The position numbers and the translations under genes were made by a program. The notes under the pieces are model-generated. The model did not search any database, had not been told where the DNA came from, and was given only the letters and a program-made list of their open reading frames with translations. Source: a virus (taxonomy: Duplodnaviria; Caudoviricetes). Taken from it: a stretch of 64,000 bases of DNA. Every line of letters begins with the position of its first letter. The first letter of the stretch is position 1. This document shows, one piece after another, positions 1 through 64,000 of this stretch. Location: the IMG/VR virus record IMGVR_UViG_3300034166_000463, positions 6,642 to 70,641 of that record. One strand, written 5' to 3'.

Positions 1-24
1 TGGCTTGCGTGATTTATCCTCTCC

Positions 25-140
25 CGAACGATTAAATCCTCCTGCAGCCCGTGAACGCCACTCCGCCACTCCCTGAGCCTCCTAGCCACGCCACCGCTGA
101 ACTGCGGGGCGGTGGGCATAGGTCTAGCGACTTGTTCGCC
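25..140 (-). mobile_element. attC-like site A (degenerate/composite)
   Basis: Left end CGAAC-GATTAA (25-35); right arm GGGCATAGGTCTAGC-GACTT-GTTCGCC ends at 140. The arms pair poorly, but GTTCGCCA is the exact reverse complement of TGGCGAAC (283-290) at the far end of this cassette. Confidence 0.6.
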
Positions 141-296
141 ATTGTCGCCAAATGGAGGAAAGATGCCGAGATGCACCGCAACTCATGCCGACTTCAAGAG
201 CAGGCAGGCAGGCGAGACAAAGCCGACAGGCACTATCAACGAAGCCTAGACCTCGACGCCTGTGCAAAGTGCATTGAGGATTTGGCGAACGCCTAG
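51..296 (+). CDS. cassette-borne hypothetical protein
   Basis: 81-aa ORF that starts inside attC-like site A. Its stop TAG is supplied by the next site (AAC GCC TAG). Confidence 0.6.
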   Translation: MNATPPLPEPPSHATAELRGGGHRSSDLFAIVAKWRKDAEMHRNSCRLQEQAGRRDKADRHYQRSLDLDACAKCIEDLANA

Positions 297-415
297 CTCT
301 GGCACCCTCACCACTAACTACGAAAAAACTATGCAAACCGAAAACGATACATCGAAGCCCGAAGACTCACCCCGACAAGAGACTGGTGAGGGTTGCTCAG
401 GAGCGACTTGTTCGC
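285..415 (-). mobile_element. attC-like site B
   Basis: GCGAAC-GCCTA-GCTCTGGCACCCTCACCA pairs with TGGTGAGGG-T-TGC-T-CA-G-GAGC-GACTT-GTTCGC, giving R box, unpaired spacer, L box and extrahelical G/T. The reverse complement reads like a canonical attC (AAC AAGTC GCTCC...GAGC TAGGC GTT). Confidence 0.85.
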
Positions 416-675
416 GTCTCTTCCGAGTGCAAGTGACCTTCGACACGGTGATCTACGCCGAAGACGAAAAGGCCGCAAAGCAAAAGGTGAAATACGGCAC
501 GGGCGAAATCGACGACATGCCCATATCGGTGCTGGCGATGCCGATAGAATCCCGCGACGGGCTACCCGCAGGATGGAACGCGGGATGCCTGCCGTGGGGT
601 GATGCTCCCGAAAACACGACCATCGGGGAAATTCTTAACGCGAACTTATTGTTCGGTTTTTCATATCCCTCTTAA
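331..675 (+). CDS. cassette-borne hypothetical protein
   Basis: ATG 331 lies in the loop of site B after an A-rich leader. The ORF reads through the cassette end (ACGCGAAC 638-645) into flanking DNA. Confidence 0.7.
   Translation: MQTENDTSKPEDSPRQETGEGCSGATCSRLFRVQVTFDTVIYAEDEKAAKQKVKYGTGEIDDMPISVLAMPIESRDGLPAGWNAGCLPWGDAPENTTIGEILNANLLFGFSYPS
643..656 (-). other. attI-like/secondary recombination target at array boundary
   Basis: AAC-TTATT-GTTCGG: inverted AAC/GTT triplets separated by a 5-bp AT-rich spacer, exactly where cassette B ends. Confidence 0.6.
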
Positions 676-782
676 ACGGGTAGGTGTCTCCATGAATGAC
701 ATCTGTGGCTAGCTCCAGCTAATCAGCTTCCATGAGTTTACAAACAAGGAAGCAGAGCATTCAACATCAACCAACCAAAACA

Positions 783-971
783 ATGCCATCAATGTCATAC
801 TGCCGCTTCGAAAATACGCTTGAAAACCTAAACCTTTGCCACATCGGTTTACAAGAAAGGGTTCACCGCAGATCAGATTTCAGCGAATCAGAACGCAAAG
901 CCTTACAAGAACTAGTTGATGTCTGCCGCGATATTGCAGACGAATTCTCCATCGAAGTGTTTTCATCGTAA
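783..971 (+). CDS. small phage hypothetical protein (MSYCRFENT family)
   Basis: N-terminal MSYCRFENTL motif common in phage early proteins. Confidence 0.6.
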   Translation: MPSMSYCRFENTLENLNLCHIGLQERVHRRSDFSESERKALQELVDVCRDIADEFSIEVFSS

Positions 972-1080
972 TCATTTCAAATAAAGCGACGGCAGAAAAT
1001 ACTCCTGTAATCGCAGAAAGTTAGCCATATCTAGTGTTCGATTATATTTTAGCCTCAACTAAACCAAAACAAATAAACAA

Positions 1081-1671
1081 ATGCAAAAAGCAGCAGACAA
1101 ACTAAGAACAATCCAAGTTGACCTCAACGCACCAAAAAACCTTGAGAACAAGTTTGGAAATTACAAATACCGATCCGCAGAAGGAATTCTTGAAGCCCTC
1201 AAGCCATTTCTTCATGCAGTGGACGCAATCCTAACCATCAGCGATGAAATTGTTGAAGTTGGTGGGCGGGTTTACGTAAAAGCTACAGCAACATTCACTC
1301 ATGCAGGAGAAAGCATCTCCACCACAGCATTTGCTCGTGAAGCTGAAAGCAAAAAAGGTATGGATGACGCTCAAGTGACGGGCGCTTGCTCCTCCTACGC
1401 CCGTAAATACGCCCTGAACGGCTTATTCTGCATTGATGACACCAAGGATGCAGACGCCACGGAAACCCACGGAAAGGGCAATTCTGATCAAAGTAAAGCC
1501 ACCTCGCAAAAAAGTGACGGAATGATGGACAAAATCATCAAATCCTTTAAGATCCAAAAATCCTTAGAGGATCTAAATGCCAAAATGGAAAAAGCCAGAA
1601 ACACTCCCTATGGGAAAGAACCACTCGTAGTCGCAGCTTATTCAGAATGCGCTTCAGTTTTCATTAAGTAA
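1081..1671 (+). CDS. ERF-family single-strand annealing protein
   Basis: APK...NKFGNYKYRSAEGILEALKP and AQVTGACSSYARKYALNGLF motifs. Confidence 0.9.
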   Translation: MQKAADKLRTIQVDLNAPKNLENKFGNYKYRSAEGILEALKPFLHAVDAILTISDEIVEVGGRVYVKATATFTHAGESISTTAFAREAESKKGMDDAQVTGACSSYARKYALNGLFCIDDTKDADATETHGKGNSDQSKATSQKSDGMMDKIIKSFKIQKSLEDLNAKMEKARNTPYGKEPLVVAAYSECASVFIK

Positions 1672-1699
1672 ACAACAAACAAACAAGAAAAACAAAAAT

Positions 1700-1993
1700 A
1701 TGGGACTTATTATTAGCGCCAGCATCAAAAAAGAAGACATCGCAAAACTCACCGAAGATCAAATGATCAAAGGTAAAACCGCCACATTCATTCCTTTGTC
1801 CATTTTTGTCGATGACAAGAATGACAATTATGGAAATAACGTATCCGTTCAGCTTTCTCAAAGCCAAGAAGATCGCGAAGCAAAGAAAACCAAAACCTAT
1901 CTAGGTAATGGTAAGGTTGTGTTTTCAAAAGGTGACATCAAAACAGCAAAAGAAATTGCAGCAAATAGCGGCAGTTCAGACGAAGCATTCTAA
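1700..1993 (+). CDS. small putative ssDNA-binding protein
   Basis: D-x-YGN...SQ...RE...YLGNGK pattern, acidic tail ending DEAF, and position after ERF. Confidence 0.5.
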   Translation: MGLIISASIKKEDIAKLTEDQMIKGKTATFIPLSIFVDDKNDNYGNNVSVQLSQSQEDREAKKTKTYLGNGKVVFSKGDIKTAKEIAANSGSSDEAF

Positions 1994-2464
1994 ATGAGCA
2001 CTCTCCACCAAGTAGCCTCGGCCAAAGATGGAGAGACATTCATTTCAATTGGCCCAGTAACCATTCACAAGCAGTTCAATCCCAAAACAGCAAAGAACAA
2101 TAAAATCTTCTCATCCGTAGTATTGAAAAGCGGATCAGACGAAATGTTCATGACAATGTGGGAAACAGCCGCTGAATGGAAACTACCACTAGGAGAAACA
2201 CTGACACTGCGAGGAAGGTTTACAAAAAACACCTTCAATGGATCAGCAAGTCTTAATTGTGATGAGCTATCAAAACCTGAAGGAGCAGTCGCAGTTAAGC
2301 CTGAAGACATCCAAAAGCCAGTTGAGAAGCCAACAATCAAAGAATGTCTTGAAACTGGACTGAGAGCAGCCGATTACATGATTCGCAAAGAACGCCCTGA
2401 ACTTTCAGAAGCAGCATTCACTTTCGCTGCCAATGCAATGCTTCAAGGCGCAAAAGCAGAATGA
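1994..2464 (+). CDS. putative OB-fold nucleic-acid-binding protein
   Basis: Beta-rich N-terminal half (MTMWE...GETLTLRG...FNG), in the recombination cluster. Confidence 0.45.
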   Translation: MSTLHQVASAKDGETFISIGPVTIHKQFNPKTAKNNKIFSSVVLKSGSDEMFMTMWETAAEWKLPLGETLTLRGRFTKNTFNGSASLNCDELSKPEGAVAVKPEDIQKPVEKPTIKECLETGLRAADYMIRKERPELSEAAFTFAANAMLQGAKAE

Positions 2465-3110
2465 TCTCTTGCTGTTGTGTTAACCGTGCAGCAGATAGAA
2501 CCAAGAGACTACGGTAAAACGAAAATACGAATAAATACCTAGAGTTGCATGGTGCTCTAAGGATTGAAACGGAACCGACGGAGCGTAATGCCGTCCCAGT
2601 AAACGGTAAGCTGGAAAATTTCTGCGTCGTCCCTGTATAAGCTCCCTTAGGATCATAAACAGTTACGCATAGCCGCAACGAGACGGAAGGCACGGCTCCA
2701 AAGCAAGTTTTGGTAAACGCGGAGAAACCAATTCTCCAGTAGCTTGTGTAAAATTGGGACACAACGGAAAGACGTTGCCTTAAGCATAAACTAAGAAACC
2801 CTCTGAGATATGTGGTATTTATGAAACCGCTAGTAGCGTCAAGCTAGCCCTGCATACGGTAAGCAGGAATCTTTACAGCAAATTCAGAAAGAGTCTTTCT
2901 GTCACCACAAGCAAGATGCTGACGCAACTGGTGAACTCATAAGCACATCTGCCCGTGGATGGTAGACTCACGCGGGAACCTTTCCCTGATGACAGCAAAG
3001 CTGAATCAGAAAACGTGCATACGGACTTCCAGCGCCTTGCGCCTAGCTCACTAGCTGAGTCGGACGGAACCGCTACAACGTCATGGTAGCGCCGGACAGG
3101 TAACTGGCTT
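2465..3110 (+). ncRNA. large structured non-coding RNA candidate 1
   Basis: About 650 nt with no credible ORF and many stems: 2465-2471/2502-2508, long-range 2531-2539/2814-2822, repeated GGTAA-loop hairpins at 2596, 2849 and 3091; followed by a T-tract. Confidence 0.6.
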
Positions 3111-3126
3111 TACTTTTTATTTAGGT

Positions 3127-3384
3127 ATGACTAAAACAAAACCACATCCACTCTGCGCAATGAATAAACCATGGGGAGTGATTCGCTTCATTCATTTCAA
3201 AGATGGCTCTGAACGCAAGTTCTACACCATGATCAACCAGATGAGCGGAAGTAGAATAAGCGCTTTTAATAATGATCCTCCGAGCACTGATGACTCTTTG
3301 CCATGGATTAAATCAGTGTTCAAAGACATCCGCAAAAAAGCAACCAAGGTTTTAGAATACCAAGGAACCAAGCACTTTGAATAA
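3127..3384 (+). CDS. hypothetical protein
   Basis: ORF in the co-directional gene run. Confidence 0.55.
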   Translation: MTKTKPHPLCAMNKPWGVIRFIHFKDGSERKFYTMINQMSGSRISAFNNDPPSTDDSLPWIKSVFKDIRKKATKVLEYQGTKHFE

Positions 3385-3607
3385 TTATCTATTAACTCAT
3401 CAAGTATCAATGTTCATTCCTATTAAAATCGTAAATAATAAATGGCAAAGCGACTTAGTTCATTTGCGTTCTATCTTCAGGCAACTAAGAAATGAAGCAG
3501 GACTTTCCGATAACAAGCCAGACCCGGAAGATGCCTACGATAAAATTCTGCAAATCGCAGGAAAATACAATTTGGGACTAGAAACTAACGTCTCGGAAAA
3601 CAACTAA
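3377..3607 (+). CDS. hypothetical protein
   Basis: ORF filling the gap in the gene run; start uncertain. Confidence 0.45.
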   Translation: MNNYLLTHQVSMFIPIKIVNNKWQSDLVHLRSIFRQLRNEAGLSDNKPDPEDAYDKILQIAGKYNLGLETNVSENN

Positions 3608-3615
3608 TTTTAGTC

Positions 3616-4029
3616 ATGGCTAAAAAATCGACAAAAAAAAGAACCAACATCGAACGACCTTACTGCAATGGAGAATGGACAGAAGCCAGATATACAAGCT
3701 TTATCAAAAGCGCCTTGCGAGGAGCTAGGTGGCCCGAAAAATACCGAGCCATCAACCTTGCCTTCGTCGAGCACGGAATCAACCCCGCCACTGGGCGCAA
3801 ATGCAAGCTACACAAATGCTCCGTATGCGGAAATCTATTCCCCCAAAACGCTGTTCAAGCGGATCATATTATCCCAGTTGTCGGATCAGAAGGATTCGTC
3901 TCATGGGATCGGTTTATTCAGAGGCTGTTTTGTCCCGCAGAAGGATTTCGTGTCGTCTGCAAAAAGTGCCACGGCGAAATAACAGCGCAAGAACGTATCG
4001 GAAGACAGTTTAACAAGCTGCTTTCATAA
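3616..4029 (+). CDS. HNH endonuclease
   Basis: CSVC...QADHIIPV...CKKCH Zn/HNH motifs. Confidence 0.85.
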   Translation: MAKKSTKKRTNIERPYCNGEWTEARYTSFIKSALRGARWPEKYRAINLAFVEHGINPATGRKCKLHKCSVCGNLFPQNAVQADHIIPVVGSEGFVSWDRFIQRLFCPAEGFRVVCKKCHGEITAQERIGRQFNKLLS

Positions 4030-4052
4030 AGCCCTTCGGGCTGGAGGTATTT

Positions 4053-4271
4053 ATGAATGAACTACATCTTCCTAATCATCTATCTTCAGAAGCACATGCT
4101 TTGTTCAGAGCATATCAAGAAATTTGGAGCATTTACGAACCCATCACACAACGCTTAGGCGAACCTTACTGGCAAGTAGCTAGAGCAGGAATTCACTCTA
4201 TCCTAGAAGCTATAATCATGCTAGATGATCCGGAAATAGGAAAACAAATAAAAAACAAACACTCTCAATAA
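4053..4271 (+). CDS. hypothetical protein
   Basis: ORF preceded by GGAGG. Confidence 0.6.
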   Translation: MNELHLPNHLSSEAHALFRAYQEIWSIYEPITQRLGEPYWQVARAGIHSILEAIIMLDDPEIGKQIKNKHSQ

Positions 4272-4298
4272 CAACAACCAAGAAAAAAACAAACGACA

Positions 4299-5306
4299 AT
4301 GAGCCACAATATAACTGAACGCGACATTCAAGCAGCATCTACACAAGCTTGGCACGGACTAACTACCATTGTAGATACGGTAACACGGGAAAACTCCATG
4401 CCATTCGACGTGGTAGAAAGCCCTATCTACTACAAAGTGCAAAAGCCACACGACACAATTCCTGACTTTTATCAGGACGTGATGATCGAATCCCCTGAGT
4501 TCAAGCAACTCATTGCTAATGACGACTTCCTCCCAATCGGAGAACCGTATGGTAGCAGCTACCACCCCTCCACGGTGGAGACGTTCTGGAGCGTCATCGC
4601 TAAAGGAATGGAGGAAATTCCGTTCGAGATTGCTTCCGCTGGCACGGTAGACAACCGCTGCAAGCTATTTGCCTCTCTTAAAGTAACAGATGGATTCAAG
4701 ATCGGTGATCGTGAGTTCAACGACTTTATCACAGTAATCGACTCCTACGACAAAAGCACCAGCTTCCAAGCCCGCTACACCAATATCTGCGTAGTTTGCG
4801 CCAATACGTTCGCAGCATCCATGCAAACCGGACAGACCATCGGTAAAGCCAAGCACACACTCAACCTTGATGTAAACATCGAACGGCTTGTTGTAGCCAT
4901 GAAAAACTTCATGGGAACAAGTAAAGTTTACCAAGAAGTCTTGAGTCAGGCTGATCGCACGGTATGCTCACCAGACGAAGCTCGCGCATGGCTCACTGGT
5001 ATCGAAGGGCGGAATACTGAAAATCTCTCCAACGGACTCAAACAAAAAGGAGCAAGAATGATGGAACTGTTCACTGGTGGACGAGGAAACGTAGGACGCA
5101 CACGCCTTGACGCATTCTCAGCGCTCACAGAGTTCCATAGTCATGAATCTTCCAACCGCAAAAGCAATGGCTCTCAATACTACTCCTCAGAGTGGGGAAC
5201 ATCGGCTCAAGTGAAAACGCTTGCTATTACCGCACTGGAGAAAGACTGGACACGCCATGTAAGACATGGTGAAAAGCTCCTTACCGAAGAAATGCTAACC
5301 GTTTAA
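4299..5306 (+). CDS. DUF932/DUF945-family protein
   Basis: MSHNI...AWHGL, SYDKST...VVCANT, KHT and TRLDAFSALTEF motifs. Confidence 0.85.
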   Translation: MSHNITERDIQAASTQAWHGLTTIVDTVTRENSMPFDVVESPIYYKVQKPHDTIPDFYQDVMIESPEFKQLIANDDFLPIGEPYGSSYHPSTVETFWSVIAKGMEEIPFEIASAGTVDNRCKLFASLKVTDGFKIGDREFNDFITVIDSYDKSTSFQARYTNICVVCANTFAASMQTGQTIGKAKHTLNLDVNIERLVVAMKNFMGTSKVYQEVLSQADRTVCSPDEARAWLTGIEGRNTENLSNGLKQKGARMMELFTGGRGNVGRTRLDAFSALTEFHSHESSNRKSNGSQYYSSEWGTSAQVKTLAITALEKDWTRHVRHGEKLLTEEMLTV

Positions 5307-5309
5307 ATC

Positions 5310-5579
5310 ATGAAGAAAAAAAAAGAATTTCCATGCGCTGATCTTCTTGGAGAAGCGAGACTAGACGGATATGATTTAATTCATGACTTATCGTTTATCA
5401 CAGCAAGTCTTCGCAATGCGTATAAAGCTGGCGATTTTGATAACAATGAAGAATTGTGTTTAAAAGAAGCTAAAGCCTCAAAAGAAGCAATCTGCACAAT
5501 GATTAACTCTTTAATGAAGATTAGAGACAAAATCACATTTTTTCAGGCATGGGCTGAAGACAACTCGCCACTTAAATAA
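5310..5579 (+). CDS. hypothetical protein
   Basis: Tightly packed ORF. Confidence 0.6.
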   Translation: MKKKKEFPCADLLGEARLDGYDLIHDLSFITASLRNAYKAGDFDNNEELCLKEAKASKEAICTMINSLMKIRDKITFFQAWAEDNSPLK

Positions 5580-5581
5580 TC

Positions 5582-5710
5582 ATGAGGCCACCAACCAACT
5601 GGGCAGCCATCAAAGCTTGGTGCATCGAAAACAACGCCTCAATATGGGACATCCTAGACTGGCGACCTGTTGATGGGGTGTATCGCTTAGCCACTAAACA
5701 AAAGCCATGA
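5582..5710 (+). CDS. small hypothetical protein (42 aa)
   Basis: MRPPTNWAAIKAW...; its TGA overlaps ATG 5707 (ATGA coupling). Confidence 0.5.
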   Translation: MRPPTNWAAIKAWCIENNASIWDILDWRPVDGVYRLATKQKP

Positions 5711-5715
5711 AAACC

Positions 5716-5832
5716 AACGCCTAGCTCTGGCACCGCGCCGGAAGCGCGTGCCGCAACTCACAAATCTATGAACCAAAATCAAGACTCCGACAACACAGCA
5801 AGCGCGGTTGCTCCAGCAGCGCCTTGTTCATC
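5716..5832 (-). mobile_element. attC-like site C
   Basis: AAC-GCCTA-GCTCTGGCACCGCGC...GCGCGG-T-TGCTCCAGCAGC-GCCTT-GTTCATC; left half nearly identical to site E. Confidence 0.85.
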
Positions 5833-6046
5833 CATTACGGTCCGATTCGTCGACGACACCCAAACTGGCAGATGCTGGTTCGAGGAAAAGCTCACAAATG
5901 GCCAGTGGGCGATGATCCCAGAAACCAAGATGACCTGCGAAGGCAACTCTCGGCACTCCCTCGCGGAAGTGATCGAGCGTCGTCGCCAGCAACGCCTGAT
6001 GATATTCCGCAACGTCGGCAAGGAGGAGGTCATTCCCATTCGATGA
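5768..6046 (+). CDS. cassette-borne hypothetical protein
   Basis: ATG in the loop of site C; GC-rich; ends at GATGAAC, the complement of GTTCATC. Confidence 0.75.
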   Translation: MNQNQDSDNTASAVAPAAPCSSITVRFVDDTQTGRCWFEEKLTNGQWAMIPETKMTCEGNSRHSLAEVIERRRQQRLMIFRNVGKEEVIPIR

Positions 6047-6169
6047 ACGATCAAATCCAGCCATGAGCCTTCCCAAAATCTGCACGTGCCCCACGGTCCC
6101 ATCTGCGGACTGCCCGTTCCACCACCAAGAAGCTCGTGGCTCATTGGCTGCGATGCCGGGTTCAGCTTC
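6046..6169 (-). mobile_element. attC-like site D
   Basis: AAC-GATCAA-ATC-CAGCCA-TGAGCC pairs with GGCTCA-T-TGGCTG-C-GAT-GCCGG-GTT, a clean stem with two extrahelical bases. Confidence 0.9.
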
Positions 6170-6587
6170 GGTTGACGCCATTTTGTCCAGCGACAGTGGC
6201 GACAGTTCGCTGATCCACAACCTCGCAACTCGTGCCCGCGAAATGGAGGCGCTTGCCACCACGCTGATGCGGACATGCTACGACGAAGCGAACAGGCTCG
6301 CGAACCACGGCAGCAGCGGACTTGAAAACAGGGTTATGTCTCAACTCTACGACGCCGCCAACGACGCGAAGAAGAAGCTGAACTTTATGTTCGACGTAGC
6401 TTTCACGGTCGAAGGACCTTGGGAGCTTCCTGAGGATGTCCCAGCAATCCAATTAATTGCTGGACTTCAAAAAAGAATTACAGATTTGACATTAGCCCAT
6501 GCAAATAAGTCAGAAGACATTACCGAAGCGTTTGGGTATTGCGATTCTTATAAAGTCGATGAACCCCCAGAAGTAAAATTCTTTTAG
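6063..6587 (+). CDS. chimeric ORF: cassette D protein fused in frame to the interrupted resident gene
   Basis: GC-rich part ends at GAAGCTGAAC (6374-6383). The remainder (FMFDVAFTVEG...) continues the orphan start ATG AAA ACC AAC at 5707. Confidence 0.75.
   Translation: MSLPKICTCPTVPSADCPFHHQEARGSLAAMPGSASVDAILSSDSGDSSLIHNLATRAREMEALATTLMRTCYDEANRLANHGSSGLENRVMSQLYDAANDAKKKLNFMFDVAFTVEGPWELPEDVPAIQLIAGLQKRITDLTLAHANKSEDITEAFGYCDSYKVDEPPEVKFF
6381..6394 (-). other. attI-like/secondary recombination target at array boundary
   Basis: AAC-TTTAT-GTTCGA, the same architecture as 643-656. Confidence 0.65.
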
Positions 6588-6601
6588 CCTTGACTAAAAA
6601 T

Positions 6602-6823
6602 ATGAGCAATACCATTACACTCCTCCCTCACATCATCGTAGATGGCTACTGGGTAGACGACCGCACCAAGTTCGAGGGGTATGTCATATCCCAATCCAAT
6701 GACATCGAAGAAGATGACGACAGCATCTTCTTCTACGGGTTAACCGAGTCCGAAATCGCTGAGTCACTTGGCAAAGAAACAAGTGAGGACTTTGTAATCA
6801 CCCATTATGAAATCGACAACTAA
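6602..6823 (+). CDS. small acidic hypothetical protein
   Basis: DGYW-DD...DDSIFFYGL pattern; very acidic. Confidence 0.65.
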   Translation: MSNTITLLPHIIVDGYWVDDRTKFEGYVISQSNDIEEDDDSIFFYGLTESEIAESLGKETSEDFVITHYEIDN

Positions 6824-6874
6824 ACAAACTGGTCAATGCCATATTGACCGTTTTTATTCTCACCAAAATAACAA

Positions 6875-7885
6875 ATGAACAAACCACTATATTACCAAAA
6901 CTGCCTTATCCAACCAGAAGATTTTTCCGATCTTTCAGAAAGATTCCGTGTTCCTTACGACACTGTTGCTGAAGTCATTGAGCAAATGCAAGAAGACGGA
7001 TTCCCAAATTGGGCTTCATACACAGGAACCATCCGACAAAGAATCGGCCAAATGGTAGATAACATTTCTCTTGAGCCAGAAAAGCCCTCTGAGGAAGCTC
7101 AAGAAGAGTCCGTGGTAGAAAGCCCCAAAGAAGAGCAAGAAAGCCTAGAACCGCTCCCTGTAAGCGAAGAAGACGACATTGTTGAACACGCTGCAATTTC
7201 TTTGATGCAAGCCATGTCCGAAACCAAAACTGGAAGCTTCATTATTACCGAAGATGGAATTTGCACAATTAACAAAAGCTCACCTCCTTCACTTATTGAG
7301 TCATACGAAGTAGTTGCAAACGTCTTGAAGCTACGCGACCTAGCTCCTAAAATGGAAGACAAGACCTCATGGATGCTTGGATCAATCATTGATGAGCTTG
7401 AAAATCTGCATGGAGAAAACTTCGAAGTAGGACAAGTAGCAGAAACCACAGACAAATCCTTGAATACCATCTGGACAACCGTTAGCGTCTATCGTGCATT
7501 CAAGAAAAAGCGTTACAAGCTGTCATTCTCATCCCACAAAGAAGCATTCCATCAAAAGATTCCAGATGAATCAAAGCATCTAATTCTTCACAAAGCAGAA
7601 GTGTTCAAGCTTGGACCAAAACCAATTCGCCACCTAGCCTGCATCGTCAAGACTATGGGAGACGATCAGGTGATTAAAAACATCCGAAGCAAGCAACAAG
7701 CAGAAGACCTTATTCTAGCGCACAAATCAAACAAAGTAACCTATCTTGTTTTTGATGATGGTTGGAGACGCATTAGCGGAACCGCATCATCTATCCCGCA
7801 AGGTAAAGTTGTAATCGACTTGAAGAACTGGACGGCAAGAGCAAATAACGGAGAACCTGTAGAAATCAAAAAAAGCAAAGCTTAA
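6875..7885 (+). CDS. putative DNA-binding protein (LmbU-like motif)
   Basis: WMLG...TIWTTVSVYRAF...R...LSFSSHKE resembles the LmbU-type pattern. Confidence 0.4.
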   Translation: MNKPLYYQNCLIQPEDFSDLSERFRVPYDTVAEVIEQMQEDGFPNWASYTGTIRQRIGQMVDNISLEPEKPSEEAQEESVVESPKEEQESLEPLPVSEEDDIVEHAAISLMQAMSETKTGSFIITEDGICTINKSSPPSLIESYEVVANVLKLRDLAPKMEDKTSWMLGSIIDELENLHGENFEVGQVAETTDKSLNTIWTTVSVYRAFKKKRYKLSFSSHKEAFHQKIPDESKHLILHKAEVFKLGPKPIRHLACIVKTMGDDQVIKNIRSKQQAEDLILAHKSNKVTYLVFDDGWRRISGTASSIPQGKVVIDLKNWTARANNGEPVEIKKSKA

Positions 7886-7891
7886 TTTCAA

Positions 7892-8251
7892 ATGTCAGAA
7901 TACATTCAAGAAGCTAATAAAAATGAAAGCTTTGAGGAAATGATGTTTGGAATGACGCAATTTACTCAAGCTATACAAAATGAAATTGCTATAGCTTTAG
8001 TGATGAGTCCAAAAATTAGGACTCGGATAGAAAAAATAATCAATAAGCCAGACCATGAAATCGTAGAAAGCTTAAATAAAAGCGTAAGAGATTTTATTGT
8101 TTCTATGGCTATAGCTGAAAGCTATGGAGTAAACATCATAATGAATGTAATTGCCACACATTCATCAATAACAGGCAATCCTACGCTCGCTGATTCAATG
8201 GTTATTGTAGGCGAGAAAATTCAACAAATCAACAACTCAACACATGAATGA
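7892..8251 (+). CDS. hypothetical protein
   Basis: ORF overlapping the primase start. Confidence 0.6.
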   Translation: MSEYIQEANKNESFEEMMFGMTQFTQAIQNEIAIALVMSPKIRTRIEKIINKPDHEIVESLNKSVRDFIVSMAIAESYGVNIIMNVIATHSSITGNPTLADSMVIVGEKIQQINNSTHE

Positions 8252-10079
8252 ACAAGAAGGTCGCTTCTACGACTTAGAAGAAATCAAAAGCGCATTAGCT
8301 AGCAGGATAGATGAATTTGTTCTTACCATTTACCCTAATGCAAAACGAGAAAGCCAAGGGTATCGAATTGGTAATATAAACGGTGAAAAGGGTGACTCAA
8401 TGCTTATTAGCACACGAGCTAATAATGCTGGTTACTTCATTGATTTCGCTACAGGGGAAAAAGGAAAAGCATGGAGACTTGTATCACTCAACAAGTCAAT
8501 GTCTTTCAAAGAAGGACTTCAATGGCTTGCTAACTTCCTTAACATCAAACCAATTCAATCCTTTGGAACTGTAAGTAAATCAAAAGACCCAGAAAAATTA
8601 GCTAAGGATATACGCACCTTGTCCCCATCTTGTATTGAATATGCAAAGAATCGCGGGATCAGTGAAGAAACATTGCTTAAGTATGGAGTAGGCACAGATG
8701 CTCAAGGGAAAATCTCATTTCCATATTATGACGCTTATGGAAGGCTTGGCATGATTAAGCATTGGGGACTTACGTTGAAACCAGATGGCAAAAAAGATAC
8801 ATGGACAAGCTCCGATCCTATTATGTCTTTGTTTGGAAAAGATGTTTGCGATCCAGATACCGGCATTCAGAAGCTAGTAATTACTGAAGGCGAATGGGAT
8901 GCAATGGCTTGTTGGGAAATGGGCATTCCAGCGGTAAGCATACCAATGGGTTGTTCTAATACACAATGGATCACAGAAGACTATCAATTTCTTTCTCATT
9001 ACGATGAGATTGTATTGTTGTTTGATAACGATCAAGCAGGTAAGAAAGCAGCAAAAGATGCAGCAGCAAGGCTCGGTCAAGAACGATGCCTTATTGTTAC
9101 ACTACCACTCAAGGATGCAAATGATATGATCCGCGCTGGCAGGGGTAAAGAAATTGCTACAGTGATCGAAAACACTGCACCAGAACCAATTGCTGAAATT
9201 GTTGATCCAACATCAATGCGAGAAGGTGTTCGCTCTTACATGAAGGGAGACCATCTTGTTGATGGCGATCCATTCTTCTTGCCTAATTTTGACCTATCAT
9301 TCAGAAAGCATGAGATTACTTTGTGGTTTGGTTTTTCTTTCCATGGTAAATCTGTTGCTGTGGCTAATCAAGTTGCATCACTTGCAGCGAAAGGAAAGCA
9401 AGTATGCGTTGCTTCATTTGAGCAACCACCTGAGCTTACCTTCTCTCAAATACTTACACAGTTCACAGCTTATCCCAATCTCCCATATACGGATGACTTT
9501 GAGTTGGCTTATGATCACCTGAGTAATTTAGTGTTCATGTATAAAAGCATGGAAAGGGCTGACCCAAAGCACCTAATATCAACATTCATCCATGCTCATA
9601 AACGTTATGGAGTCGATACATTTGTAATCGACAACGTAATGACAATGAACATTGACCGTGGTGATAATACAGCTCAAGCAGAAGCAATTGACGGACTGCG
9701 TGTATTTGTTTCCAAGTATCCAGTTCATTTAATGATTGTAGCTCATCCACGCAAGCCTCCCGAAAATACATCCAAACCACCCGGAATGGCAGAAATTCGA
9801 GGAGCATCAGAGTGGGGCGATATGCCACATAATATTATCACAGTATGGCGCGACATGGCAAAAAGTGAACGCATGGCTGAAATGACTGACAGTGACTTTG
9901 ACAGTTCTGATATTGAAAGATTCTTTGAGTCTACTCCATGCGGAAAATTAATTGTAAGAAAGCAAAGAACTACAGGAGAAACACCATTGACTAATTTTTG
10001 GTTTCACAAAGAAACAAAAAGGTTTACATCAAAACCATCTGGTCCAATGCCAATGTATTCTGAATGTCCTTGGAAATAA
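8244..10079 (+). CDS. T7-like DNA primase/helicase (Toprim + SF4 helicase)
   Basis: ITEGEWDAMA and LFDNDQAG (Toprim); GFSFHGKS Walker A, VIDN, AHPRK and IRGAS (SF4). Confidence 0.93.
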   Translation: MNEQEGRFYDLEEIKSALASRIDEFVLTIYPNAKRESQGYRIGNINGEKGDSMLISTRANNAGYFIDFATGEKGKAWRLVSLNKSMSFKEGLQWLANFLNIKPIQSFGTVSKSKDPEKLAKDIRTLSPSCIEYAKNRGISEETLLKYGVGTDAQGKISFPYYDAYGRLGMIKHWGLTLKPDGKKDTWTSSDPIMSLFGKDVCDPDTGIQKLVITEGEWDAMACWEMGIPAVSIPMGCSNTQWITEDYQFLSHYDEIVLLFDNDQAGKKAAKDAAARLGQERCLIVTLPLKDANDMIRAGRGKEIATVIENTAPEPIAEIVDPTSMREGVRSYMKGDHLVDGDPFFLPNFDLSFRKHEITLWFGFSFHGKSVAVANQVASLAAKGKQVCVASFEQPPELTFSQILTQFTAYPNLPYTDDFELAYDHLSNLVFMYKSMERADPKHLISTFIHAHKRYGVDTFVIDNVMTMNIDRGDNTAQAEAIDGLRVFVSKYPVHLMIVAHPRKPPENTSKPPGMAEIRGASEWGDMPHNIITVWRDMAKSERMAEMTDSDFDSSDIERFFESTPCGKLIVRKQRTTGETPLTNFWFHKETKRFTSKPSGPMPMYSECPWK

Positions 10080-10094
10080 AAAAAACAAAACTAT

Positions 10095-10292
10095 ATGGAA
10101 CCATACTACTACGTATTCAAATCAAGTGGACACCCGCCAAGCAAACGGCATGAATCGCTTGAATCCGCCCGCATCGAGTCATTACGCCTAGCCGCCCTGC
10201 ATCCAGGACAGTCGTTTGAAATCCTCTTGTGCATCGGGATAACTCAAGCCGCGAAAGCATCAACATTCTGGATGGACGGAATAGAACCATAA
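10095..10292 (+). CDS. small phage protein
   Basis: P-x-KRHESLESARIESLRLAALHPGQSF motif typical of small phage proteins. Confidence 0.65.
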   Translation: MEPYYYVFKSSGHPPSKRHESLESARIESLRLAALHPGQSFEILLCIGITQAAKASTFWMDGIEP

Positions 10293-10389
10293 ACAATTTC
10301 CTCGCGGATCGGGAGAACCCGACGAGCAGGGGCAAAGGGGGAGAACGCATCCCAAAAAACGTTCACCAATTTACTATAGAAACCAATCT

Positions 10390-10614
10390 ATGAGAACAAC
10401 AGTCACAATAATCCGAGAGGTTGAAATTGAAGTCGAGGCTCACTATGCCTCTGGCACACCTGCAACCCACTTGCAGCCGGAGGAACACGCTAACGTCGAA
10501 ATCATTGGGGCACACGTTGACGGCGATAGAATCGAGTTGACCGACGATGAGCGTGACGAGGTATACGAGATGATTATCCAAGACCCACCGCAGCGCGACT
10601 ACTACGACGATTAA
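10390..10614 (+). CDS. acidic hypothetical protein
   Basis: ORF in the gene run. Confidence 0.65.
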   Translation: MRTTVTIIREVEIEVEAHYASGTPATHLQPEEHANVEIIGAHVDGDRIELTDDERDEVYEMIIQDPPQRDYYDD

Positions 10615-10643
10615 AAGTATAACCAATTTCATTATCAATTAAA

Positions 10644-10868
10644 ATGAAACCAGAGAATAATATCAAGCGACCTGTAGGAAGGATTCCCGCTGATACAAAA
10701 GCATGGTTAGAAGTAAATGAAAAATGGACTGGTTCAGAAATTGCTATTTGCCTTTGTGGTAAATGGTATCATAAGATGGATCATCTTGCTCCGTATCACA
10801 CAGAAATGAACTGGTGTAAAAAATGCGGATACCAATGCCCCCCAGAAAGCAAAAATAACAATGACTAA
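10644..10868 (+). CDS. Cys-rich hypothetical protein
   Basis: CLCG and CKKCG motifs. Confidence 0.55.
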   Translation: MKPENNIKRPVGRIPADTKAWLEVNEKWTGSEIAICLCGKWYHKMDHLAPYHTEMNWCKKCGYQCPPESKNNND

Positions 10869-11118
10869 AAAAGAAAAGCATCAAAAGTTAAAAGCTTTAA
10901 TTAGTGAAATTCATTATCAAGCATACGAAGGAATTTCAACATGGGGTTATTGTGAAAAGAAATGTGGCAATAGCGCTCGCGGTAGCAATATTTGTTTAAG
11001 TTGTTTATCTCTTGAGCTTGAAAAGCTTGTAGGAATAAAAAACTCAGACAATTATGTATGCGCTTTAACAACTGCAAAAAAACTAGAAAACGAATTTAAT
11101 CAAAAATATGTTAAGTAA
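10861..11118 (+). CDS. hypothetical protein
   Basis: Overlaps its neighbours; CxxxC/CxxC motifs. Confidence 0.55.
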   Translation: MTKKEKHQKLKALISEIHYQAYEGISTWGYCEKKCGNSARGSNICLSCLSLELEKLVGIKNSDNYVCALTTAKKLENEFNQKYVK

Positions 11119-11557
11119 AACACACAACCTAGTCGAATCCATGACATACGCTTTAGGGCCTTTGTTTCATGAAGAGCCTGATTATAAAACTATCCAACAA
11201 GCAATAGGGCTAGTAATAGCTCGTATAGCAATGGCAACACCAAACCGTGGAAAAGAATTCTTAGAACTTTCTATCATACATGAATACTCCCAAAAAGCTC
11301 TCGAAGAACTTCTCAACATTGAAGCAGAGCAAGCAGCACAAAAAGCCCTCGTGGAACAAGGCATTGGGGGATTTGCTAAACTCTTCAGCCCAAGCGACGA
11401 AGAAACAGAAAAAGACCTCAAGGACTACTACCAAGACAGATGCACACTTGAAGACTTGCAAGCAAGACACGAGCGCAGAGCAGCGTTACATGACATTGAA
11501 ATCATCAAGGCCGAAGAAGCGAAGCAAGCCCACCTCGACACTTACAAGGAAAATTAG
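11108..11557 (+). CDS. hypothetical protein
   Basis: Helical ORF in the gene run. Confidence 0.6.
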   Translation: MLSKTHNLVESMTYALGPLFHEEPDYKTIQQAIGLVIARIAMATPNRGKEFLELSIIHEYSQKALEELLNIEAEQAAQKALVEQGIGGFAKLFSPSDEETEKDLKDYYQDRCTLEDLQARHERRAALHDIEIIKAEEAKQAHLDTYKEN

Positions 11558-11909
11558 CGATGCCGCTTGTAGGAGAGCCAAACTTGAATCCAATTACAGG
11601 GCAAGTGGTGCGCTGCTACCAACTGAAGCCATTTGTGCCGTCTGCGGGGTTAAAGCCCAGTCCTCCACAATGGAGCGCCATCACCCAGCGGGACGACGTA
11701 AAACGGCGTTCTGCTTCACCGTGCTGCTCCACAGCCAATGTCACCGCAAAGTCCATGAAGACCCCCTGTGGGCTCAAGAAAAAGGCCTCCTATGGAAAGG
11801 ACGCAATAGCAAAGTCTTCACCGAAGCAGACGCAGTGGGGTTGGTAGCTATGTGGCCTTTTCCATGCTCCTATCCTCTCATAATCCTAAAACAATTTAGC
11901 CCTGACTAA
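11490..11909 (+). CDS. HNH-like nuclease
   Basis: CAVCG...ERHHPAGR...CHRKVHEDPLWAQEKGLL; start inferred. Confidence 0.65.
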   Translation: MTLKSSRPKKRSKPTSTLTRKISDAACRRAKLESNYRASGALLPTEAICAVCGVKAQSSTMERHHPAGRRKTAFCFTVLLHSQCHRKVHEDPLWAQEKGLLWKGRNSKVFTEADAVGLVAMWPFPCSYPLIILKQFSPD

Positions 11910-12166
11910 TGAAAATCCTAAAAGATAAATGGACATGGATATTGCCTTATGGCGGGTATCTTGAATGGGACAATACAGTTTGCCCCTTTGTTTCCCCCGG
12001 TGCTGATTACGTAGGTCAAAATGACGGGTTTACCGTTTCGTTCCGCTACTTCGCCAGCAAAGGAGACTTTGGAGATCGCCGCTTCAAAAAGAAGTTCAGA
12101 ACTTGGAACGAAGCTCATCAAGCTGGAGAACGAGCCCTTCGGTTCATAAATAGAATCAAGCCATGA
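11909..12166 (+). CDS. hypothetical protein
   Basis: TAATG-coupled ORF. Confidence 0.6.
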   Translation: MKILKDKWTWILPYGGYLEWDNTVCPFVSPGADYVGQNDGFTVSFRYFASKGDFGDRRFKKKFRTWNEAHQAGERALRFINRIKP

Positions 12167-61749: not shown

Positions 61750-62061
61750 ATGAACGTACAACCAACACCTGAGACGGATGCTGCATGGGCTTGTTTCAAA
61801 GGCTACATGGAACCGCTGCAAGATGTTCAAGATTTAAGCCGTAAACTCGAACGCGAACGGGACGATGCACGGGAGCAGTTAGCCGCCGCCCGTGCCGAGA
61901 TTGATGAAATTCACGCAACAGGTGGGTGTAGCTACATCGAACTGCACAAAGTCACCGCACAGCGCGACAGGCTGGCGGAGGCTTTGGAGAAAGTTTACAG
62001 ATCATGGAATTATGCCGAAGTCGCTCGCGAAGCCCTCCAATCCCTAACCCATAAACCATGA
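61750..62061 (+). CDS. TPETD/KLERE coiled-coil family protein 1
   Basis: TPETDA...RKLERERD...VTAQRDRLAEAL. Confidence 0.7.
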   Translation: MNVQPTPETDAAWACFKGYMEPLQDVQDLSRKLERERDDAREQLAAARAEIDEIHATGGCSYIELHKVTAQRDRLAEALEKVYRSWNYAEVAREALQSLTHKP

Positions 62062-62615
62062 AAACTGACACACCTGAGACAGACGTATGGGAAGCATACT
62101 GCGATGAATGCTACTACCACATGTGGAGACTGCGCCGCAAAACTGACAGAGGATGGTATGATGGATTCCACATTCATACAGGGGAAGAAGCAAAAGGGCT
62201 TTGCGAGACGCTGAACAAACTCGAACGCGAACTCAACGAGGCACGGGCGGAATCAATCCGATGGATGTCCATAGCCGAAGGGCGGGGACGCTGTACATTG
62301 CGCGGCGGCCCCGACGCATGGGTTATCGGAGCGTGGGGAGACTCTATCACAGTGACCACCGCCGAAGACGTAATGCGCGAAGTGCGAGACTTCTTAGACG
62401 ATGGATGCAGGACAATCACCATCGAGCGACAAGGCGCGCCCGATAGAACGGACGGCGGATGCACGCCAATCGTTTCCGAAGATCAACTCGCCACCGTCAC
62501 CGCACAGCGCGACAGGCTGGCGGAGGTGTTGCAACAATGCCGCGAAGATTCCGTTGAATTAGTCACCGAGCGCGACCGCATCAATGCCATCATCAATACA
62601 TTCTCCAACCAATAA
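62058..62615 (+). CDS. TPETD/KLERE family protein 2
   Basis: Same motifs with unique inserts. Confidence 0.7.
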   Translation: MKTDTPETDVWEAYCDECYYHMWRLRRKTDRGWYDGFHIHTGEEAKGLCETLNKLERELNEARAESIRWMSIAEGRGRCTLRGGPDAWVIGAWGDSITVTTAEDVMREVRDFLDDGCRTITIERQGAPDRTDGGCTPIVSEDQLATVTAQRDRLAEVLQQCREDSVELVTERDRINAIINTFSNQ

Positions 62616-62619
62616 AAAC

Positions 62620-63126
62620 ATGAACGACACACCGACACCTGAGACGGATGCTCTTTACAGAGATGACCACCGCCCAAATCTTATTGAACACGCCCGTAAA
62701 CTCGAACGCGAGCGGGACGAGGCGCGGGAGTATGCAGACAAATTAGCCGAAGGGCTACCAGACGGGATGCTCCCGAAGGATGTCGAGGTGCTGCGGGAGG
62801 CGAATCTTGGGCTGGCTACCGAACTCGCCACCGTCACCGCACAGCGAGACGAAGCGCGGGAAACAATCGCCACGATGGAAATTCGTCATGCCGCTGTAAT
62901 GCTACACACTCAAAGCATTGTTGACGAAGCCAATCAATTTCGAGAGCAGCGCGACAGGCTGGCGGAGGCTCTGCGATACTGCCGCGAGGACTCAGCCGAA
63001 CTACTCGGCGAGCGCGATTGGTGGCAATCCGAGCCGAGGTGTGATTATGCTAAGAGATGGCAAGAAACCCACGATAACCTGACCCGCGCCGACGAAGCCC
63101 TCCAATCCCTAACCCTGAACGCCTAG
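62620..63126 (+). CDS. TPETD/KLERE family protein 3
   Basis: Same motifs; stop supplied by attC-like site E (AAC GCC TAG). Confidence 0.7.
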   Translation: MNDTPTPETDALYRDDHRPNLIEHARKLERERDEAREYADKLAEGLPDGMLPKDVEVLREANLGLATELATVTAQRDEARETIATMEIRHAAVMLHTQSIVDEANQFREQRDRLAEALRYCREDSAELLGERDWWQSEPRCDYAKRWQETHDNLTRADEALQSLTLNA

Positions 63127-63232
63127 CTCTGGCACCGCGCCGAGAGCGCGTGCCGCAACTCACAAATCTATGAAACCAAAATCAGACTTAAACAACACGG
63201 CGGGCGCGGTTGCTCAGGAGAGACTTGTTCGG
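63118..63232 (-). mobile_element. attC-like site E
   Basis: AAC-GCCTA-GCTCTGGCACCGCGCC...GGCGCGG-T-TGC-T-CA-G-GAGA-GACTT-GTTCGG. Confidence 0.85.
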
Positions 63233-63433
63233 GGTGTTTGGAATAACCTAGCGGCTTCGCTAATATGCACGCCCTTGCTCGGCGGAATCACCGTGTTTAC
63301 ATGCGGACTAGGCGGTCATGCCGACTTGGTTTCGTGGTGCGCTGCTGCACTCGGACTGTCCGTTGGATGGATGGCGGGTCTGTGTGGTGCGCTCGTGGTA
63401 ATTTCTTCACCGAACATCACTATCACAAAATGA
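63170..63433 (+). CDS. cassette-borne two-TM membrane protein
   Basis: ATG in the loop of site E; two hydrophobic helices; cassette ends at CCGAAC 63410-63415. Confidence 0.65.
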   Translation: MKPKSDLNNTAGAVAQERLVRGVWNNLAASLICTPLLGGITVFTCGLGGHADLVSWCAAALGLSVGWMAGLCGALVVISSPNITITK

Positions 63434-63500
63434 CAACGAAGAAAAAGACTCCCGCAAAGAAGAAAGCCCCGCCGGTTGCCGCTGCCGCGCCTTGTTCGGC
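63413..63500 (-). mobile_element. attC-like site F (left arm decayed)
   Basis: Right arm GGTTGCCGCTGCCGC-GCCTT-GTTCGGC is intact; GTTCGGC complements GCCGAAC 63552-63558. Confidence 0.6.
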
Positions 63501-63585
63501 GTCTGAGCTTGCTGACCGAATCGCCAACGAAATCGGACAAGGATTCCGTCTGCCGAACGCCTCTGTGGAGGCACGCCAAAAATAA
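63430..63585 (+). CDS. short, probably truncated cassette ORF
   Basis: MTTKKKTPAKKKAPPVAAAAPCSAS...PNASVEARQK. Confidence 0.45.
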   Translation: MTTKKKTPAKKKAPPVAAAAPCSASELADRIANEIGQGFRLPNASVEARQK

Positions 63586-63640
63586 ATCTATGAATACACC
63601 AACCAACTCCGAGGCGTTGCCTCTCACGAATTGTTCTCCG
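63556..63640 (-). mobile_element. attC-like site G
   Basis: AAC-GCCTCT-GTG-GAGGCA-CGCC pairs with GGCG-T-TGCCTC-T-CAC-GAATT-GTT; GTTCTCCG complements CGGAGAAC 63783-63790. Confidence 0.85.
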
Positions 63641-63973
63641 TCTTTTTTGTGCCGCGTGATCGGCCATCACTGGACATGTAAAAAGGTGGATGAGCAAACA
63701 TCCCCCGGATACCGGATTACGACCAAGGAAATGATCTCTCACTGCCGCCGATGTGGGATGCCGAATCCGATCTATTTTCATTCGGAGAACAGCGGCATGG
63801 GTGACGGATACTGCCCGATCTTCGATAAATTCACCGATCCTGACCACGGCAAACGCTGCACTGCATTTCAGCCGAACGTCAAAGGCCATGCGTCGCCGGA
63901 ACACGCGCCCAAAATTGATCAGACGGCTTCCTCGGCGTCGCATGTGCCGACTTGTTATCCATCTTCCGATTAG
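63590..63973 (+). CDS. cassette-borne DUF1660-like Zn-binding protein, reading through into the following remnants
   Basis: LCRVIGHHW...CRRCG; ATG in the loop of site G. Confidence 0.6.
   Translation: MNTPTNSEALPLTNCSPSFLCRVIGHHWTCKKVDEQTSPGYRITTKEMISHCRRCGMPNPIYFHSENSGMGDGYCPIFDKFTDPDHGKRCTAFQPNVKGHASPEHAPKIDQTASSASHVPTCYPSSD
63875..63960 (-). mobile_element. attC-like site I
   Basis: AAC-GTCAAA-GGC-CATGCG-TCGCCG pairs with CGGCG-T-CGCATG-T-GCC-GACTT-GTT. Confidence 0.85.
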
Positions 63974-64000
63974 TTCTCAAGCGCGTCACCTGCGCTTGAG

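Follow-up and report, generated by a model that had tools for sequence, protein, structure and literature searches.

What are the right-hand ends of the GC-rich islands in this phage genome, and why are two of them so alike? At both places GC-rich DNA stops at an AAC triplet, and GTTCG follows five nucleotides later in the adjoining phage sequence. The window analyzed here is a stretch of 64,000 nt, bases 6642-70641 of a 70,641-nt IMG/VR virus record. Coordinates refer to this window unless they are given as genome positions, which count from the start of the record. A preliminary description of the locus had proposed the two places as insertion targets with an attI-like core. Both of its strings are present as written, AACTTATTGTTCGG at 643-656 (reverse complement CGAACAATAAGTT) and AACTTTATGTTCGA at 6381-6394 (reverse complement CGAACATAAAGTT), and both are boundaries between array and phage DNA. 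We consider it fairly probable that each 14-mer marks the attI-side recombination junction of an integrase-less, CALIN-like cassette array, with three cassettes in the first array and two in the second.

GC-rich islands in the phage record

The phage background has a GC content of about 42-45% and carries early genes of the Erf, HNH and DUF932 types on the + strand. This background is interrupted by three islands of 55-58% GC. Island 1 extends from about 250 nt before window base 1 to position 645, island 2 from 5719 to 6383, and island 3 from 63121 to the end of the record, with a further piece at genome 1-193. AACTTATTGTTCGG and AACTTTATGTTCGA form the right-hand ends of islands 1 and 2, where these meet AT-rich phage DNA. 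Over 400 nt, the GC content falls sharply at both sites, from 0.56 to 0.41 at the first and from 0.58 to 0.43 at the second. The start and the end of the record both lie within array 3, the array of the third island (window 63950-64000 and genome 1-50). These ends do not join, because two 3' boxes would then fall less than 100 nt apart. Therefore, an assembly gap is probable despite the completeness estimate of 100%, and the gap probably lies inside array 3.

Searches for known relatives gave little. Among GenBank phages only Erf-like matches with 67% identity were obtained, and no relative of the region was found. In 80 loci collected as relatives on the basis of Erf, the target gene was absent and a single weak match to the upstream ORF was seen. 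An Rfam search of window 1-12000 returned no family, and a Pfam search with nine ORFs of the GC-rich regions returned no family at or above the curated cut-off. In the latter search two coiled-coil paralogs gave sub-threshold coiled-coil matches only.

Several other features of the window were observed. Three tandem paralogous GC-rich genes for coiled-coil proteins are located at 61750-63126. Their products all start with ..TPETD and end with ..EALQSLT.., and the third gene is truncated at its last codons by array 3 (..LTLN|A*). A stretch of about 650 nt (2465-3126) contains neither a long + strand ORF nor an Rfam match. In a contig from lake run X6, 30 other letters stand in place of window 2849-3608. 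Within a GC-richer segment at 10300-10616, GGGAGAAC and GGAGAAC precede a small ORF (10391-10616); the segment may be a fourth, single cassette. At the matching place the relative L005 has a cassette array.

Cassettes and attC-like hairpins

Each cassette begins directly after an AAC with an attC-like hairpin and ends with ..NNNNAAC, which complements its own GTTNNNN. Detection of attC was based on a regular expression and a 7-nt complement rule, so divergent attCs may have escaped. In arrays 1 and 2, the cassette end is an exact 7-nt complement of the cassette's own 3' box in four of five cassettes, with 6/7 positions in the other one. The latter is cassette 1a, of which the window holds the 3' part (1..29, + strand). 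Its end CCCGAAC (23-29) was compared with the complement of its 3' box GTTCGGC. Cassette 1b (30..290, + strand) has the 3' box GTTCGCC (134-140) and the end GGCGAAC (284-290). Cassette 1c (291..645, + strand) has GTTCGCG (410-416) and CGCGAAC (639-645). Its attC-like hairpin spans 285-416, the ORF starts at 331 inside the loop, and the DNA fold shows a closing stem. In array 2, cassette 2a (5719..6048, + strand) carries GTTCATC (5826-5832) and GATGAAC (6042-6048), and cassette 2b (6049..6383, + strand) carries GTTCAGC (6160-6166) and GCTGAAC (6377-6383). Array 3 (63118..64000, + strand) starts with the 19-mer AACGCCTAGCTCTGGCACC and runs off the end of the record, its other piece being the one at genome 1-193.

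The 19-mer AACGCCTAGCTCTGGCACC is found at 288, 5716 and 63118. A search with its 16-nt core gave 26 matches, located in 25 IMG/VR loci. Of these matches, 24 have an AAC (AAT once) before the core and an ATG-bearing leader after it; the other two matches, in L007 and L013, were dropped as chance matches. A conserved 3' arm, GGTTGC..CAGGAGCGACTTGTTCG, follows in 20 distinct copies outside the window that were picked by a pattern search. The consensus fold of a 22-sequence alignment contains 20 pairs, five of them with compensatory changes. It is ordered as R pairing (AAC/GTT), an unpaired spacer of 4-5 nt, a stem and then the five covarying pairs. Single-base bulges of the stem are located on the 3' arm only, opposite the AAC. 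In the 22 sequences 97.3% of the cells were paired, compared with 34-56.5% when the partners were slid. Double-change (compensatory) cells numbered 32 versus 10.5 in shuffles, and none of 500 shuffles reached as many. Translation of the conserved 3' arm uses one frame in 12/22 sequences and another in 10/22. The arm is therefore conserved as a DNA-level signal and not as protein.

According to the excerpted text of PMC5027507, the bottom strand, which is the one recombined, can be told from bulges located on the arm facing the AAC. Since the bulges described here lie opposite the recombined AAC, the + strand corresponds to the "bottom" strand. A complementary pair of cassette end and core site and an imperfect hairpin are given as defining features of attCs and cassettes in the excerpts of PMC3053210 and PMC5027507. 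Judged from sequence features, the islands are integron-type cassette arrays: we found a hairpin of R''/R' and L''/L', extrahelical bases, an AAC crossover and members of the same family beside intI genes. The textbook layout, in which a promoterless top-strand ORF is followed by the attC, was not found; instead, the cassette ORFs are on the attC bottom strand. Their starts (window 331, 5768, 6063 and 63170) fall within the attC loop, some 11-50 nt downstream of the AAC, and the frames continue through the 3' arm, an arrangement opposite to that of the textbook cassette. The ORFs run in the direction of phage transcription. In the related locus L145 (2392-3174) an ORF that starts inside an attC encodes a full N6_N4 DNA methylase (N6_N4_Mtase, E 3e-51). 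In a metagenome-assembled genome (MAG), G001, a cassette ORF points towards intI.

Array 2 interrupts a small phage gene

The left junction of array 2 is formed by the first four codons of target gene 2, ATGAAAACCAAC, at 5707..5718 (+ strand). At the right-hand junction the AAC crossover triplet occupies 6381..6383 (+ strand), as located with a lake contig and empty sites. The remainder of the gene follows at 6384..6587 (+ strand) and begins with TTTATGTTCGA (6384-6394). Three related contigs without island 2 (L004, L005 and L162) carry an uninterrupted ATGAAAACCAAC-TTTATGTTCGAC. L162 reads ATGAAAACCAAC-TTTATGTTCGACGTAGC, identical to the left flank plus the right flank of the window, and L004 and L005 have the same join apart from one or two synonymous substitutions. 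The product of the uninterrupted gene begins with MKTN|FMFD. An empty allele was also found in lake run X6, where one contig joins 5715 to 6381, skipping 5716-6380 (665 nt), with three ambiguous letters at the AAC. Array 2 is present in a second contig of the same run with 0 differences, and contigs of runs X4 and X5 cover the array junctions, again with 0 differences. Because the lake-run data are contigs, depths say little. Site 2, which comprises codons 4-9 of the gene, was empty in all four relatives seen.

Array 2 is bounded by AAC at either end, and its removal gives back the empty allele exactly. The insert lies precisely between ...AAC and TT...; this identifies the AAC as the crossover triplet and assigns the 10-11 nt behind it to the native phage. 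As a result of the insertion, ORF 6063..6587 consists of the cassette 2b ORF fused in frame to 67 codons of the target gene.

Array 1 ends in the last codons of a second gene

At site 1, the AAC crossover triplet of the right-hand (attI-side) junction is located at 643..645 (+ strand). The native phage half of the target, TTATTGTTCGG, occupies 646..656 (+ strand), with GTTCG five nucleotides after the AAC. It lies within the last codons of the interrupted gene (..N|LLFGFSYPS*). The junction was mapped with the help of cassette 1c. All 355 nt of this cassette recur with 91.3% identity in L028 (387-741), with other neighbors on both sides, and in L028 the cassette is followed by another attC instead of TTATTGTTCGG. 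The different right-hand neighbor therefore fixes the boundary at 645|646. Thus, both places were confirmed as real insertion targets, the one at 6381 by the empty site and the one at 645|646 by cassette 1c in L028.

Array 1 begins to the left of window base 1. Judging from sequence likeness, its left end is most likely the junction ..CCTACGAAC|GCAATAGG (genome 6389|6390), so that the array would start at genome 6390, 252 nt before window base 1. This position was preferred over 6417|6418 because of its likeness to the junction in L145; folding does not confirm the boundary. If the left end is placed correctly, the original target would have been ACGAAC-TTATT-GTTCGG in a gene ending ..FSPTN|LLFGFSYPS*. 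The original left half was reconstructed in this way because no empty allele of site 1 was found in viral contigs, metagenome contigs or relatives of the gene. All 31 relatives of the interrupted gene end in different C-terminal tails. A search with the 20-mer that follows the junction gave 0 matches in viral contigs and one unrelated chance match in metagenome contigs, and the gene downstream of site 1 had no relative in viral contigs. By the insertion, ORF 331..675 of cassette 1c gains 10 phage codons. In both insertions the AAC is an in-frame Asn codon, and the gene stub upstream of each array continues for 1-9 codons into the first attC before a stop.

The two target sites share a GTTCG box

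The string AACTTWWTGTTCG has two exact matches in the 64-kb window. With up to one mismatch three matches were found versus 0.42 expected, and three were reached in 1 of 100 shuffles. In the whole 70,641-nt record, GAAC-N5-GTTC occurs at these two places only. AAC-N5-GTTCG has four matches over both strands, corresponding to three loci among the 2475 AAC triplets of the record. These are 643, which reads on both strands, 6381, and 4892 on the minus strand. The third locus (4880..4892, - strand) is unoccupied and lies inside a gene for a 335-aa DUF932 protein. Between the two occupied sites the 10 nt after the AAC are identical at 8/10 positions, with an identical run of 6 nt. Among 400,000 random pairs of AAC sites of the genome, 0.07% reach 8/10 (p ~7e-4) and 0.25% reach a run of 6. 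Shared ancestry does not account for the match, since the target genes are not related to each other.

The cassettes' own 3' boxes start, in consensus, with GTTCG, and a distance of five nucleotides from the AAC is the position at which the L stem starts in this attC family. The spacing of AAC-N5-GTTC equals the R-to-L spacing of this family and of the aadA1 attC. The geometry of an integron simple site that had been noted at both places, a shared AAC, 5 nt and GTTCG, is present. One site had been thought to be inside coding sequence. In fact both are, since ORFs 262..675 and 6063..6587 read through them. On the minus strand both sites carry GTT, which agrees with the GWT found at the cleavage point of attG sites. 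The local hairpins predicted for the two sites in their occupied state are still weak (-4.5 to -4.9 kcal/mol), and before insertion no pairing beyond that of the AAC/GTT triplets is certain at either of them. After insertion, the junctions form inverted pairs, CGAAC-N5-GTTCG at 641-655 and GAAC-N5-GTTC at 6380-6392. The inverted CGAAC box of the preliminary description is indeed present at 641-645, but its CG (641-642) is part of cassette 1c, in which the end CGCGAAC is complementary to the 3' box GTTCGCG. The original site 1 target probably also had CGAAC at 641-645.

Other array ends in related phages

Arrays in related phages were compared at their ends. A third phage target was mapped, AAC|AAACAATGACC. 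It is empty in L136 and L137 (ATTCCGAAC|AAACAATGACC) and occupied in L151. This target has no right GTTCG box, and its good box is the left arm CCGAAC. It is the end of a gene homologous to the site 1 gene. The family of this gene (at genome 6169; L131-L161; ..QF-x-P-x-N) is occupied at its 3' end in G000, L145 and L151 and has very variable tails in other lineages. The 3' end of the family appears to be a recurrent insertion place. A common thread of the three mapped non-hairpin targets is one good GTTCG/CGAAC box, in the left arm, the right arm or both, which is no proof of a rule.

A different kind of end was found in at least seven arrays, which stop at a hairpin of about 57 nt, AAC|AGCYAAGATC...CGTTCACCGCATCRACCTGTTC, with different cassettes in front each time. 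These are the arrays of G000 (array 3), L145/L165/L167, L163, L164, L166 and L168, the last of which reads CAAGATC. In the record, the short hairpin site lies at genome 194-245, after the piece of array 3. This end has no GTTCG box. The hairpin may be a resident docking attC or else the last cassette of the array. A hairpin-like sequence was also observed in the X6 contig just left of window 1035, of which the window keeps only GTTCGATTATATTTT. The expectation that array boundaries of related phages would share the second box was in part contradicted, as AAC|AAACAATGACC and AAC|AGCYAAGATC are without it.

Candidate recombinases and host integrons

The phage record (70.6 kb) has no match to PF00589, TIGR02249, PF00239 or PF01797. 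We therefore infer that the recombinase came from the host or from another element. The 19-mer AACGCCTAGCTCTGGCACC is present in six genome contigs, all of them from Verrucomicrobiota MAGs. Five genomes with the 19-mer were searched; in four of them an integron integrase exceeds the TIGR02249 cut-off, and the score of the fifth is 241.9 bits. Integrases beside this attC family score 194-339 bits against a cut-off of 265, with seven genes above it. Arrays end directly upstream of an integrase gene on the same strand in G001, G002, G003, G004, G005, L025/L030 and L032, where L025/L030 are IMG/VR loci and L032 is the MAG locus of the G002 genome. A search of the host genomes with three mismatches gave matches at noise level beyond one exact site per MAG. 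The array ends of L022 and L024 look attI-like, but no IntI homolog was found in the adjoining DNA and they were not counted as attI sites.

The intI-side junctions were compared with the phage sites by eye. They read AAC|AGTGTAATTAG, AGTGTATTAAGC, AGTTAATTAGG, AGGGTGTTATAG and similar, in general form AAC|AGTGTATTA-like. All nine junctions begin with AAC|AG, compared with AAC|TT at the phage sites, and they have no GTTCG at +6. A likeness to the sites beside intI genes was not found in this comparison.

Further observations concern the integrase loci themselves. Two IMG/VR "viral" contigs, L025 (1-5987) and L030, contain an 8-cassette array ending AAC|AGTTAATTATAGG, followed by an IntI-like gene whose TIGR02249 score of 194 bits falls short of the cut-off. 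In MAG G001, the IntI-like gene lies among ParB-, exonuclease- and ASCH-type genes, so this integron may itself ride on a mobile element. In L006 (61-204, minus strand), the C-terminal 48 residues of an IntI homolog, with 60% identity to the L025 protein, directly adjoin a cassette end (..GGCAGAAC|), as if a cassette had been inserted into an integrase gene.

Comparison with known integron sites

Integron cassettes can be inserted outside the integron platform at attG sites. According to the excerpt of Loot et al. (bioRxiv 10.1101/2022.09.11.507474), the attG consensus consists of GWT plus weak flanking motifs at hot spots, and the site acts in double-stranded form. The phage insertions agree with this description in several respects. 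They lie outside an integron platform and fall inside genes, the crossover is at GTT/AAC, and the target would be double-stranded, with no stable hairpin predicted. They differ in being natural, with empty and occupied alleles in lake metagenomes, and in the several-cassette arrays that have built up at each site. Furthermore, the phage sites share a GTTCG box 5 nt away, which is absent from the consensus as given in that excerpt, and the enzyme would be a Verrucomicrobiota-type integron integrase, not IntI1-3.

The preliminary description had likened the sites to the attI1 core. We compared them with attI1 of plasmid R100 (NC_002134.1). The array-start position on the strand carrying G|TT is the same, and both have an A-rich stretch before G|TT (CCCTAAAACAAAG|TT compared with CGAACATAAAG|TT) and inverted AAC/GTT triplets. 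In contrast, AAC and GTT are 3 nt apart in attI1 (CCTAAAAC-AAA-GTTAAAC) and 5 nt apart in the phage sites. In addition, the phage sites are located inside coding sequence with no adjacent intI gene.

The simple sites of attC (1L-2L and 2R-1R; excerpts of PMC3053210) have the same order of AAC, 5-6 nt and an inverted box starting GTT(C). The aadA1 attC of R100 reads TAAC-AATTC-GTTCAAG and TTAAC-TCAAGC-GTTAGAT, and the phage sites read AAC-TTTAT-GTTCGAC and AAC-TTATT-GTTCGGT. A difference is that the attC halves work as a folded single strand with bulges, whereas each phage site is one pair of half-sites with neither a partner arm nor bulges. In sequence terms, the layout of the phage sites appears to be that of an integron simple site, closer to the aadA1 attC than to attI1. 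Contacts between IntI and attC are described in the same excerpts as largely non-specific save for the bulged bases.

Integrase-less attC clusters in phage genomes have been described by Qi et al. (2023; excerpts of PMC9892861). As in the present case, inverted GTTRRRY-like motifs were seen at some array boundaries, and DNA methylase cassettes occur, here as the N6_N4_Mtase of the related L145. The present arrays differ from those in the excerpts in that an insertion point was mapped to the base by empty alleles, that the cassette ORFs are encoded by the attC bottom strand, with starts located within the attC, and that the host phylum is Verrucomicrobiota. Among the papers searched, no title or abstract was found on base-mapped natural attG-type insertions in phage genes, or on this Verrucomicrobiota attC family.

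Origin of the insertions

We propose that double-stranded phage DNA received the arrays within two small genes of the phage, presumably through splicing by an integron-type tyrosine recombinase that the phage does not encode. This enzyme would have joined the folded + ("bottom") strand of a circular cassette to secondary, attG-like double-stranded targets. The GTTCG located 5 nt after the AAC, at the L-box position, would probably serve as a second binding place of the recombinase and would favor these two AAC triplets among about 2,500. After the first insertion, the junction would consist of the R box of the cassette (YGAAC), 5 nt and GTTCG, that is, a near-perfect inverted pair at the attI position. 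Such a junction could then take up further cassettes. The choice left by the preliminary description, between opportunistic attG-like sites and a defined target preference, is best answered by the former. The sites are possibly favored by simple-site mimicry, and a defined attI finds no support: there is no cognate intI gene adjacent and no likeness to the intI-side sites of this attC family. The likeness of the two sites suggests that the enzyme prefers such sites, although with n=2 this is no proof.

It is possible, at a lower probability, that AAC/GTT is all that is needed, and that the shared TTWWT-GTTCG reflects coincidence or phage tolerance and not recognition, the tolerated places being the AT-rich ends of small non-essential genes. 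Such minimal sites would agree with the published GWT consensus (bioRxiv 10.1101/2022.09.11.507474, excerpt). The absence of GTTCG at +6 from the other insertion places in related phages and from the intI-side sites points the same way, as do the unoccupied AAC-N5-GTTCG locus at 4892 on the minus strand and the fact that the box is common to two sites only. Against coincidence stands the 8/10 match, which is reached by just 0.07% of 400,000 random AAC pairs, and both insertions fall in a class of three loci among 2475 AAC triplets. The common 5-mer is moreover the consensus start of the cassettes' 3' boxes, at L-box distance, and the unrelated target genes leave no explanation by common descent. 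Another view would be that the sites and the short hairpin are kept up by the phage lineage itself, as attI-equivalents at which cassettes are loaded. Arrays of two, three and at least five cassettes have accumulated at these places, the 3' end of the site 1 gene family is occupied in three lineages (G000, L145 and L151), and the same hairpin of about 57 nt ends arrays in G000 and six other loci with different cassettes before it. The cassette ORFs also follow the direction of phage transcription. We nevertheless regard dedicated landing pads of this kind as unlikely, given that site 2 is merely codons 4-9 of a gene and empty in 4/4 relatives seen, that both sites are inside genes truncated by the insertion, that the phage has no integrase gene, and that the sites have no sequence likeness to intI-side junctions.

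Least probable of all, and very improbable in our view, is an arrival of the arrays with no integron integrase, by homologous or illegitimate recombination with a cassette array of the host or by an unrecognized phage enzyme. For phage CALINs, off-target homologous or illegitimate recombination at inverted GTTRRRY has been proposed (excerpts of PMC9892861), Erf-type and HNH-type genes lie nearby, and no recombination was observed here. However, both ends of array 2 fall on AAC with an exactly restored empty allele, the inserts are whole numbers of cassettes obeying the R-box rule, and target flanks and cassettes have no homology beyond the AAC. Splicing by an integron-type recombinase at attG-like targets accordingly remains the reading that we prefer.

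A broader and rather doubtful proposal goes further. Freshwater Verrucomicrobia phages might run a cassette economy of their own, in which they keep landing pads for the IntI-type loading and swapping of small genes. The pads may be simple-site mimics of the form AAC-N5-GTTCG in dispensable gene ends, together with the resident hairpin of about 57 nt. The IntI-type enzyme may be borne by the host or by a temperate phage, and the start codons may lie inside the attC, pointing along phage transcription.

Meaning for cassette exchange in phages

So far, attG insertion has been shown mainly in laboratory assays, and phage attC clusters have been described with no mapped insertion points. The window provides two natural insertions that are mapped to the base inside phage genes. 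For one of them, empty and occupied alleles coexist in lake metagenomes sampled from 2016 to 2024. The idea put forward here is that a GTTCG box 5 nt from an AAC makes an ordinary triplet a preferred site. If this holds, the landing places of cassettes in phage and bacterial genomes would become easier to predict, and the box would illustrate how a secondary site may turn into an attI-like capture site. The findings add to the evidence that Verrucomicrobiota phages trade small genes as cassettes, including DNA methylases as in a related locus. Should the cassette economy prove true, the integron would be a system for the exchange of phage accessory genes rather than a bacterial one.
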